This document shows, piece after piece, positions 21,001-24,000 of a stretch of 64,000 bases of DNA. Origin of the DNA: Escherichia coli (GTDB lineage: Bacteria; Pseudomonadota; Gammaproteobacteria; Enterobacterales; Enterobacteriaceae); NCBI RefSeq assembly GCF_011045215.1, contig NZ_CP049201.1; one strand, given 5' to 3'. A program made the position numbers. Within the stretch, counting starts at the first letter, position 1. Each line of letters begins with the position of its first letter.

Positions 21001-24000
21001 TTATATGGGCCAATGCCAGATGGGCTTAAAAAACATTAAAATGGCCACGGAGTTATTTAATACAGTCGTAACCTACAGCCAAAACGAAAAAGTTAAAGAG
21101 ATGGCTACTGCTTATCTTGAACTTTTGACAGCCAATACCGAAGAGGAAGTTCAAACAGAGTGAGTCGGCAAAATGAACATAAACGGAAAAAACGCTTCTT
21201 TTACGCCTGAAGAGTTAACCAGGAAATATCATGAGGAAGCCCCGGTTGATTTAAAAAATAACCATGGCGATAAAATAAATGAGAAAAACAACAATAAACA
21301 CATTACTTACTTTCCCGTTGATGCCATTTTAGATGGGAATAAACATCTGCCATGAGTTAAATAAAAAAGAATTAATTACACCCGATGATAGCTTAAAAAG
21401 GAGGTGAATTATGTCGGCACCGATTACGGGACAAACGATCACATTTGAACAAGTCAGCGAAACATTGCGTACACAGTATAGCGATGCGGAAAAAAGACTG
21501 CAGGACAGCAGCAAAACGCAAGTTGATCCCATGCGGCTTAATAAAAACCCGAAATCCCTTGATAACGATATTCGCGCTCGTCTTGAAAATAAACCTATGC
21601 TTGCTCCGCCTGCAATGCAGGTTTCAGATTCAGACAACGCCACTACAGCAAAGACGAATGATGCCCGCCTGACAATGATTTTGGGTAATTTAACAGGCAT
21701 TGCCGATCAGGATATTACAACACGATTGCATAATAACCTTGACAGCACCCTGCTTCGACACGAAATGGCACATAATAAGTTTCGTGAATTAAGCGACGCC
21801 TATGCATCCTCATTAGATTCTGCGCAAAAAGCTGACGATATCATGCATCAGGCCAACAATAATTACAATGCGGTCGATAAAAAGGTGCAATCGCTGGAGA
21901 AAAAAGTCAATACATTGAATCAAGAGCTGTCGCAACTGCAACCTGGCGATCCGCAATATAATAAAGTACTGACGCAAAAAAATGCGGCTGAGAAAACACT
22001 CACGCTGTCATTACAAAAAAAATCGTTAGCTGAGAAATCGTTAAATACAGCCATTATGGATGCTGATGCTGCGATCGGCCAAAGTATGGAAATTTTTGAC
22101 GAAATTCAACAGCAAGAACAGATTAATAACTTTACCACTAATATTTGCCTGACCCAGGAAAACCAGAAAAACAGAAACGCAACAGCCACATTTATCCTTT
22201 TGATTACCTCAGTAATGGAAGTTATTGGTGATACCAATTGCGAATCCATTAAAAATCAATCTGAGGTAATGAAAGAAATTAACCATGTCAGGGAAAATAA
22301 ACTCAATGAAACAGCGCGTAGCTATACTACATGGACAAAACTTTTAAACATTATTAATGAGGTCGTTACTGTAGTTACCTTTGCCGTAAGTGCAGCCTTA
22401 ATTGTGATTGGTATTGTCGCAGCAGTTCCAAGTGCTGGGGCAAGCTTTGCTGGAGCGCTGGCACTAATTGGAGGAATCACGGGGGCAGTAGTATTAGGTG
22501 TTGATATTATTTGTCAAATCACTCTGGGCACCACGGCTACCGGTTGGATTTTAGGAAAACTTACTGAAGGTCTTTCGGGTATTATTTCAAAATATGACCC
22601 CACACTACTCGCAATCTGCGCTCTTCTGGACGCCTTGGGTGTCCAACAAACGACTATTGATTTAGTACAAGATATTTACTCATCTGCAGCCGCTTCTATT
22701 GTTATGGTAACATTAATGATTGGTGCAACATTAATTTGTTCAGTAGCAATAAGTGAACTTGTAAAGGCACTCTCAAAAACTGCCGCCGAAGAAATCACAA
22801 AAGAAATAACTGACAGTATAAAATCCACCGTGGAATCTATGATCAAGTCAGTTTCAAAAAAAATCATGTCAGCATTAAATTTCCTCGGTGACAAAATAAA
22901 AGCATCATCACAATTTATAATGATATTTGCAAAAATAACTATTCTTCTTGAAAAAGTTGCCGCAGGCGTTTGTACAATAATTACATCGTGCATGAATCAA
23001 TACGCTGCCAGTAAGTCTGCAGATATCGAAATTCTACAACAAGATATAAGCAATCTATCAAAAACGCGCGAACAAATGCTTACAGTGATGCAAAGGATAG
23101 ATAAAACCGTCGAACAAGAGGTAGCTCAGATGGTGCGTGTATTACAACACCGAACTGAAGCTTTGAAATTTGCTTCTCATTCTATCGTATAAGAGGATTC
23201 AAAAATGACCAATAATATTAGCAATATAAACAATACAGCTCATAATAAGAATCTCGACAAAACAACATTCGATGAACAACCTGGTTATGAAACAAGAGTA
23301 TCACAAGCTAAAAAAATACTGCAAAGTTTTTCGTCAAATGATATTAAAGTTGACACAAATACTAAATTTATTAGTCTGATAGAGTCTGTCCGTGCTCTCT
23401 CACCTGAAGTACAATGTAAGGTACTAGATGGTCTTAATTATGCTAAGAATACACTACATAATATAAATCAAAATTCTGCTGTAGCAACAAAATCATCCTG
23501 TCAGTCTACCGAGTCAATAGAGAAAACCATAACATTTAATATTCTCGATATGTTAGATAATTTGACGATGAGACAACAGAACATTATGGAGGCCTTTCTA
23601 AGAGTCTTTACATCAATGTACAATGCCTCTGCCATGGCGGATGCTAGCATGAGCATCGTTTTTGAACAGCTTGTCCAGCTTCAGAGTGACGAAACAAAAA
23701 ATGCTTCTTGGGCAAATTTAACAGGTGCATTAGCAGGCTCAGCTATTAATGCTACGGGAGCTGTATTTATGGCAGGTGCAGAACTTGCGAAGCCCGCGGG
23801 AAAGATAGATGATATCGCAGAAAACCAGGAACAAAATGCAGAAAAACCAGAGGACCAAACTCGGATAAGATCAAAAGAAGATATGGCAAATGCGAAAGCC
23901 AGACTTGCCGAAATAGAAAATCAACAAAAAGCATTATCAAATAACGAGAATATTGAGGATAATGACAAACAAGAGCAATCAAGTAAGTTACAAAAAGAAA

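Follow-up and report, generated by a model that had tools for sequence, protein, structure and literature searches.

A small ORF in the eicA–eipB spacer

The window analyzed here is a 64,000-nt stretch of the Escherichia coli contig NZ_CP049201.1 (assembly GCF_011045215.1). It holds the selC-adjacent eip island, in which the gene for a type III secretion system (T3SS) translocator chaperone, eicA, is followed by a 60-codon open reading frame (ORF), here called ORF60, and then by the major translocator gene eipB. A sequence-only reading of the window had described a 247-bp spacer between the two genes containing a lysine- and asparagine-rich 60-codon ORF, and had judged that ORF more likely to be a regulatory 5′ leader than a gene. 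The spacer (21164–21410, + strand) and the ORF are as described: the eicA stop codon lies at 21161–21163, the eipB ATG begins at 21411, and ORF60 extends from ATG to TGA at 21173–21355 on the + strand, with 10 Asn and 7 Lys among its 60 residues (28%). The interpretation that we prefer, with somewhat more belief than doubt, sees ORF60 as a fast-evolving small ORF, inherited and translationally coupled, in a slot that recurs in eip/Ysa-like operons, with selection on its C-terminal 15 residues alone, and as dispensable or decaying. Under this interpretation, ORF60 would be a gene or else the remnant of one at a late stage.

ORF60 starts 9 nt past the eicA stop codon. The junction (21158–21172, + strand) consists of the TGA stop, a degenerate Shine–Dalgarno (SD)-like GAGTGAG and the 9-nt gap, and it has a single variable site among 15 loci. 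This geometry is compatible with termination–reinitiation coupling. The predicted duplex with the anti-SD sequence is weak for ORF60 (−4.8 kcal/mol), as the sequence-only reading held, compared with −12.9 kcal/mol for eipB, −12.1 for eipD, −8.7 for eicA and −5.8 for eipC. The junction geometry and the weak SD lead us to infer that ribosomes most likely terminate at the end of eicA and start again 9 nt downstream.

The coding strand is A-rich (A 42%). Of composition-matched shuffles, 2% stay open for 60 codons or more from the 5′ end when any of the three frames is counted, and ORF60 therefore exceeds what is expected by chance alone. Annotation already exists for it, as the RefSeq 'hypothetical protein' WP_001024520.1 (Prokaryotic Genome Annotation Pipeline, PGAP; UniProt A0A1M2EM19), in ∼730 of 5,426 complete E. 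coli genomes, yet it is absent from the literature: reviews of ETT2 and eip list six eip genes, none of them between eicA and eipB (PMC11068852, PMC7058095). ORF60 has no relative in Pfam, NCBIfam or the PDB, and a word search of a 5.8-billion-protein collection found nothing beyond E. coli copies. A 90%-identity protein collection files the 60-amino-acid (aa) product in a cluster represented by the 165-aa EicA, a clustering artefact that could conceal the small protein in searches.

In an AlphaFold2 model of EicA joined through a 25-residue linker to ORF60, the chaperone has a predicted local distance difference test score (pLDDT) of 90–97 and the ORF60 part a score of 28–36. In the positive control, EicA–linker–EipB(1–100), the EipB part also scores below 45, so the docking test is without power. 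The product of ORF60 would thus be a 60-aa peptide that is predicted to be disordered.

Constraint at the 3′ end of ORF60

Variation within E. coli was examined in 15 complete genomes taken across the identity range and in 58 metagenome loci. The latter were retrieved by an exact pattern in the eipB start, which places no bias on ORF60; 75 loci had the pattern, and the 59 that were full-length yielded 34 unique haplotypes extending from eicA to eipB codon 200. The ORF60 ATG is invariant in the window and in 32 parsed spacer haplotypes (29 listed, 2 unparsed).

The sole constrained part of the ORF is codons 46–60 (YFPVDAILDGNKHLP; 21308–21352, + strand). Segregating-site density there is 0.111 (eicA and eipB fourfold-degenerate sites, 0.292; p = 0.017), and π is 0.011 compared with 0.071. 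The changes in this block are four synonymous and one nonsynonymous (G55E), plus a TGA>TAA substitution that keeps the stop codon. Their distribution between change types differs from that in codons 1–45 (Fisher test, p = 0.017), and the binomial probability of the synonymous bias is 0.01 when all substitutions are counted and 0.07 when only transitions are. Conservation ends ∼12 nt past the ORF60 stop, and the sequence is then variable up to the eipB SD: in the untranslated stretch between the ORF60 stop and the eipB ribosome-binding site (21356–21392, + strand), 8 of 37 sites segregate (0.216), which is no different from fourfold sites, and there is one 1-nt deletion allele. The eipB translation-initiation region (AAAAAGGAGGTGAATT; 21393–21410, + strand) is invariant, with 0 of 18 sites segregating in the 34 haplotypes, a figure inflated by the position of the last 16 sites inside the fetch pattern; the region is identical also in the 15 independently found genome loci. 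The spacer's one constrained piece coincides with the 3′ end of ORF60 and, on the basis of few events, changes like coding sequence. In the interpretation that we prefer, selection would now be confined to the last 15 residues while the first 45 codons drift neutrally.

A recurrent slot between chaperone and translocator genes

The chaperone–translocator gap was read in relatives at loci where the chaperone is 50–70% identical to EicA. The tight linkage that the sequence-only reading stated for operons of Shigella and of SPI-1 (Salmonella pathogenicity island 1) is borne out by Shigella ipgC–ipaB (gap of 5 nt), Providencia sicA–sctE (2 nt) and a Salmonella plasmid T3SS (overlap of 8 nt), S. 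Typhimurium SPI-1 itself not being among the loci compared. A nomenclature table of SPI-1-related systems likewise places nothing between the chaperone and sctE genes (PMC7232297). These Shigella and SPI-1-like plasmid operons resemble eip in encoding, with homologous proteins, a chaperone, an SctE translocator, an IpaC/SipC-like protein and a tip protein; they differ from it in having no room for an intervening ORF.

A long gap is nevertheless not an E. coli peculiarity but is found across eip/Ysa-like loci. It measures 263 nt in E. albertii (locus L017), 255 nt in a second, divergent E. coli eip-like locus (L020), 171 nt in L022, 282 nt in L028, 323 nt in L029, 319 nt in L033, 268 nt in L032 and 121 nt in the Y. 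enterocolitica locus L030. In four of the eight lineages that have such a gap, it is filled by an ORF beginning at the chaperone stop. The occupant is 60 aa long in E. coli, 70 aa in E. albertii (L017 6519–6731, with a GTG start inside GTGA and an AAGGAG SD), 94 aa in both L029 (4498–4782) and L033 (3001–3285), and 81 aa in L032 (4504–4749). The L029, L033 and L032 ORFs overlap the chaperone gene by 4–8 nt, whereas ORF60 follows its chaperone stop after the 9-nt gap. Each slot ORF is open in 0.8–2.4% of composition-matched shuffles (any frame, start codon not required). Conservation in homologous islands, which the sequence-only reading had proposed as a check, is found in part: E. albertii and three loci of Yersinia type have an ORF at the chaperone stop, none with detectable sequence similarity to ORF60.

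The closest comparison is E. albertii, where the 70-aa ORF occupies the same slot of the orthologous chromosomal island (on the setC–yicL–yicS side). Both ORFs end 55 nt before the translocator ATG. Their initiation regions are alike, [A/G]TGAACA preceded by a GAGTC-type SD, and align at 16 of 21 nt by our own count (E. coli GTGAGTCGGCAAAATGAACA, E. albertii GGAGTCTACAGAGTGAACA), and the ORF60 junction aligns to the AAGGAG...GTGA junction of E. albertii. The E. albertii ORF differs from ORF60 in that its GTG overlaps the chaperone stop, its AAGGAG SD is strong, and it carries PELIKP at residues 47–52.

The Ysa-type slot ORFs (between sycB and yspB) likewise resemble ORF60 in position, strand and start at the chaperone stop, and they too are small, fast-evolving, without a known domain and variably present between close relatives. 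The SDs of the L029 and L033 ORFs are strong; that of L032 is weak, like that of ORF60, and the 9-nt gap of ORF60 is near enough for reinitiation even though the Ysa-type ORFs overlap the chaperone gene. These ORFs differ from ORF60 in their recognizable origin. The 94-aa ORF of L029 is collinear with residues 22–85 of the translocator at its own locus and with the N-termini of other SctE proteins (Smith–Waterman z 9–12); it is 41% identical over 94 residues to the L033 ORF (P0038, Y. enterocolitica WP_411937742.1; tblastn E 1e-20), and the 81-aa ORF of L032 joins this family at E 1e-4. Between L029 and L033, identity is 41% for the small ORF, 41–44% for the YspC-like protein and 59% for SctE. 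Because the divergence of the small ORF is similar to that of its neighbors, the Yersinia-type slot ORFs behave like genuine genes. By sequence comparison, they are unrecognised paralogues of the translocator's N-terminal chaperone-binding region. The ORF is unnamed in the Ysa literature that we searched and is annotated as hypothetical. An exhaustive HMMER search with the 94-aa ORF returned three relatives, of which one was spurious, so that the family is either rare or usually missed by gene finders. Some Y. enterocolitica have the ORF intact (WP_411937742.1); another has only a stump of it, and L028 a remnant.

The class II chaperone-binding motif is PxLxxP (PMC4536800). P0038 (PDLRKP, by direct reading of its sequence), the L032 ORF (PTLKKP) and the E. 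albertii ORF have it near residue 50, and it is present also in EipB (PMLAPP, residues 62–67 by motif scan) and most other SctE N-termini scanned; the SctE of L032 is without the motif.

By position, and not by sequence, ORF60 appears to belong with the Ysa-type slot ORFs, and would be the E. coli occupant of a chaperone–sctE slot found throughout the eip/Ysa-like branch of SPI-1-family operons. Annotators and comparative studies should regard the chaperone–sctE gap in these operons as a place where a fast-evolving small ORF recurs. The most interesting by-product of the comparison is that the Yersinia-type ORFs are unrecognised paralogues of the translocator N-terminus, and these are better experimental targets than ORF60; the E. 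coli finding itself is minor.

Evidence against the preferred interpretation

Several lines of evidence weigh against this interpretation. Part of it concerns sequence similarity. BLASTP of ORF60 against the E. albertii slot ORF gives no match (global identity 14–17%), tblastn against all of the spacers gives no match with E below 1, and hhalign of the ORF60 alignment against the slot-ORF alignment gives a probability of 0.2. Smith–Waterman comparison with shuffles of ORF60 against the N-termini of EipB and other SctE proteins (six in all) gives z of at most 0.95, and a PxLxxP regular-expression scan of ORF60 finds no motif. The sole marginal Smith–Waterman value is for ORF60 and the 94-aa ORF of L029 (z 3.5, the others being <1.3), where the conserved VDAILDG of ORF60 is set opposite VDADVLLKG. 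The lack of similarity to other slot ORFs is weakly informative, because divergence is high among bona fide eip proteins as well: identity between E. coli and E. albertii is 70% for the chaperone, 27% for EipB, 24% for EipC and ∼40% for EipD. Relative to the chaperone, the exposed translocon proteins have diverged extremely.

A second part concerns the evolution of codons 1–45 (21173–21307, + strand). The 34 haplotypes carry 39 nonsynonymous and 11 synonymous changes in this region (ω ∼1). Its segregating-site density is 0.319 compared with 0.292 at eicA/eipB fourfold sites (p = 0.70), its π is 0.059 compared with 0.071, and variable sites in the whole ORF are spread evenly over the codon positions (18/13/17). 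Codons 1–45 evolve neutrally. Hypervariability beyond the neutral level in codons 1–30 was considered and rejected, since p is 0.01 against all third positions but 0.25 against fourfold sites. The synonymous bias in codons 46–60 rests on 5–6 events (p 0.01–0.07 by mutation model), and the fact that none of ∼47 substitution events gave a stop codon does not reach significance as evidence of selection (P = 0.27).

A third part is the frequency of disrupted alleles. The A6 homopolymer at 21253–21258 (+ strand) is a frameshift hotspot with two independent frameshifts: an A5 allele truncates ORF60 at 34 aa in 19 of 74 loci and in ∼12 of 59 evenly sampled complete genomes, and an A7 allele truncates it at 29 aa in 7 of 74 and ∼6 of 59, respectively (together ∼18 of the 59 genomes). 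Slippage in this run truncates about one third of alleles. Frameshift alleles make up ∼30–35% of copies, each on its own haplotype, and are flagged by PGAP as frameshifted pseudogenes; the genomes that carry them keep eicA and eipB intact (eipC was read in part only). In the metagenome contig L047, an IS1 terminal repeat is joined inside ORF60 at ∼21324/21325 (codon ∼51), and the complete genome NZ_CP169035.1 (strain MZ1211) matches only from 21324 onward. In both L047 and MZ1211, eicA and the 5′ part of ORF60 have been replaced or lost and eipB has been kept. With about one third of alleles truncated and eicA and eipB intact, the ORF60 product would therefore be dispensable and the gene eroding. 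The frame is intact in about 65–70% of copies. The scaffold L093 (1001–1177, protein P0004) combines A5 with a second, 5-nt deletion that removes one copy of an ATAAA tandem repeat and brings the conserved C-terminus back into frame (58 aa); this restoration speaks for the preferred interpretation and is suggestive, but it is a single observation at a slippage-prone repeat.

The slot itself is also unevenly filled. The L028 gap (4500–4781) holds a stop-riddled remnant (tblastn E 1e-3), the Y. enterocolitica L030 gap (4498–4572) holds a 24-aa stump, and the spacers of L020, L022 and L028 have no slot ORF. Finally, the SD of ORF60 is weak.

The sequence-only reading had held that a conserved, intact ORF with evidence of translation would make ORF60 a real small protein. 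The outcome is mixed: roughly two thirds of E. coli alleles have an unbroken ORF, and its last 15 codons change mostly synonymously, while about one third of alleles are frameshifted.

Alternative explanations

The main rival explanation is that the spacer is a non-coding 5′ leader of eipB, in which the ORF is fortuitous or a fossil and 21290–21367 is a cis element (such as a protein-binding site, a processing site or an internal promoter) controlling eipB independently of eicA. We regard this as unlikely, though it deserves to be weighed seriously. It accounts for the neutrality of codons 1–45, for common and tolerated frameshift alleles, for the weak SD and for the lack of a homologue or domain, and it fits the strong, invariant ribosome-binding site that eipB has of its own. 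Spacers of similar length lack an ORF in L020, L022 and L028, so that what is conserved most widely is the gap itself and not its ORF. The conserved block also contains short repeats that can be read directly in the sequence (TGCCAT twice, and AGATG-N8-CATCT). Against these points, the RNA signals that such a leader might be expected to have are missing. The minimum free energy of 21150–21440 is −49.7 kcal/mol compared with −46.4 ± 4.8 kcal/mol for shuffles (z −0.68), which is no excess stability, and the sole local hairpin, of 8 bp in the conserved block, is broken without compensation by the natural variants at 21336 and 21337 (G55E and G55G). An Rfam search of the spacer gave no match at E up to 1, and a promoter/terminator scan found no + strand site in 21164–21410, with an overall count equal to expectation. 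Since the spacer region is not C-rich (C 16%, G 18%), there is little reason to invoke Rho. There is no positive evidence for a structured regulatory leader. In addition, conservation stops ∼12 nt past the stop codon with the remaining sequence up to the SD variable, substitutions in the block are biased to synonymous, ORFs stand at the chaperone stop in four lineages, and the conserved block is not alignable in E. albertii. The original preference for a leader over a gene is supported in part: three quarters of the ORF show no protein-level constraint and about one third of alleles are frameshifted, but no leader signal was seen.

A rather improbable second alternative is that the act of translating ORF60 matters and the peptide is irrelevant. 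Reinitiating ribosomes would cover the 247-nt AT-rich gap, limiting polarity or RNA decay, and would be carried to within 55 nt of the eipB ribosome-binding site without being coupled to it. This would explain an ORF that stays open across lineages with almost no amino-acid constraint, and it fits a start that abuts the chaperone stop in every ORF-bearing lineage. The similarly weak SD of eipC (−5.8 kcal/mol), 12 nt past the eipB stop, would on this account indicate that coupling is used in the operon. However, translation alone leaves unexplained why only the last 15 codons are constrained, and with a synonymous bias. The frameshifts leave 150–170 nt untranslated in one third of strains with no visible loss of eicA or eipB, and several lineages do without the ORF. 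Delivery of ribosomes is hardly needed by eipB, whose ribosome-binding site is strong and lies 55 nt past the end of ORF60, and a region with more G than C has no typical C-rich Rho-loading site.

Less probable still is the broader proposal that the slot ORFs, ORF60 included, represent one class, so far undescribed, of 'mini-translocator' peptides. Their genes would directly follow the class II chaperone gene and be translated together with it, and the peptides would bind the chaperone through a short linear motif, PxLxxP in most and YFPVDAILDGNKHLP in E. coli. They would then titrate the free chaperone that co-activates an AraC-type regulator (EivF, YsaE or InvF-type) or, alternatively, be secreted as an early feedback substrate. 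On this proposal, the frequent frameshift alleles of E. coli would represent natural variation in the regulation of ETT2/eip expression.

An origin of ORF60 by partial duplication of the eipB 5′ end was rejected, with z of at most ∼1, and likewise for the E. albertii ORF; for the Yersinia-type ORFs such an origin does hold.

Possible role of an intact ORF60

If ORF60 is a gene or gene remnant as we prefer, the likeliest role of its intact form, by analogy, would be that of a short-motif ligand or accessory of the secretion/chaperone machinery. We propose this role because the Yersinia-type slot ORFs are paralogues of the translocator's chaperone-binding N-terminus and because two of them, together with the E. 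albertii ORF, carry PxLxxP. ExsE of Pseudomonas aeruginosa and LcrQ/YscM of Yersinia are small, disordered proteins encoded in T3SS operons that act via a short chaperone-binding segment; they bind class I-type chaperones and not the tetratricopeptide-repeat class II chaperones. ORF60 has no sequence relationship to them, but its conserved C-terminal 15 residues would fit an ExsE/LcrQ-like chaperone-binding role.

Should the peptide be produced and bind EicA, it would be a seventh, unrecognised component of the six-gene eip locus and would provide a simple tuning of the free class II chaperone, which in this family also acts as a transcriptional co-activator. A5 and A7 would in that case serve as natural knock-outs for ETT2/eip function in bloodstream lineages such as sequence type 69 (ST69). 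An ORF60 that is no more than a decaying remnant would be of less practical value.

Neighboring genes and additional observations

Genes in the window were called from the ORF list, Pfam matches and the PGAP annotation of an identical genome. Upstream, the order is setC–yicL–nlpA–yicS, followed by eicA, the 60-codon ORF, eipB, eipC, eipD and eilA. The 165-aa product of eicA (20666–21163, + strand) is a class II (SycD/LcrH/SicA-type) T3SS translocator chaperone, with a Pfam TPR_3 match at E 2e-17 and the PGAP name SycD/LcrH family chaperone; its pN/pS is 0.07. The 593-aa product of eipB (21411–23192, + strand) is an SctE/SipB/IpaB-family major translocator matching Pfam T3SSipB and SseC. Next come eipC (23205–24335, starting 12 nt past the eipB stop), eipD (24379–25728) and eilA (25931–27628). 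EipC (376 aa), in the IpaC/SipC position, matches no Pfam family at E up to 0.1, and PGAP lists it as a 'hypothetical protein'; its Yersinia-type counterparts match IpaC_SipC weakly. The E. albertii segment L017 6001–11193 has the same chromosomal context as 20666–25728 of the window.

The second, divergent eip-like locus is present in some E. coli (L020 6001–12480; L021; GCA_009799345.1 and GCA_910664965.1). Its chaperone is 55% identical to EicA, a gene for a 1350-aa invasin/intimin-like protein lies upstream and a HilA-like regulator downstream, and its 255-nt spacer has no ORF of more than 30 codons. A contig assigned to a 'Collinsella sp.' metagenome-assembled genome (L026, JAIJJM010000039.1) carries an eicA 98% identical to that of E. 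coli together with the A5 allele of ORF60, and is almost certainly a misbinned E. coli contig.

The eipB gene is very diverse in E. coli, with π of 0.084, alleles that differ at up to 15% of nucleotides and pN/pS of 0.31. Its first 300 nt are much more conserved than the rest (π 0.032, pN/pS 0.15). This pattern looks like mosaic or diversifying evolution of the EipB translocator body.

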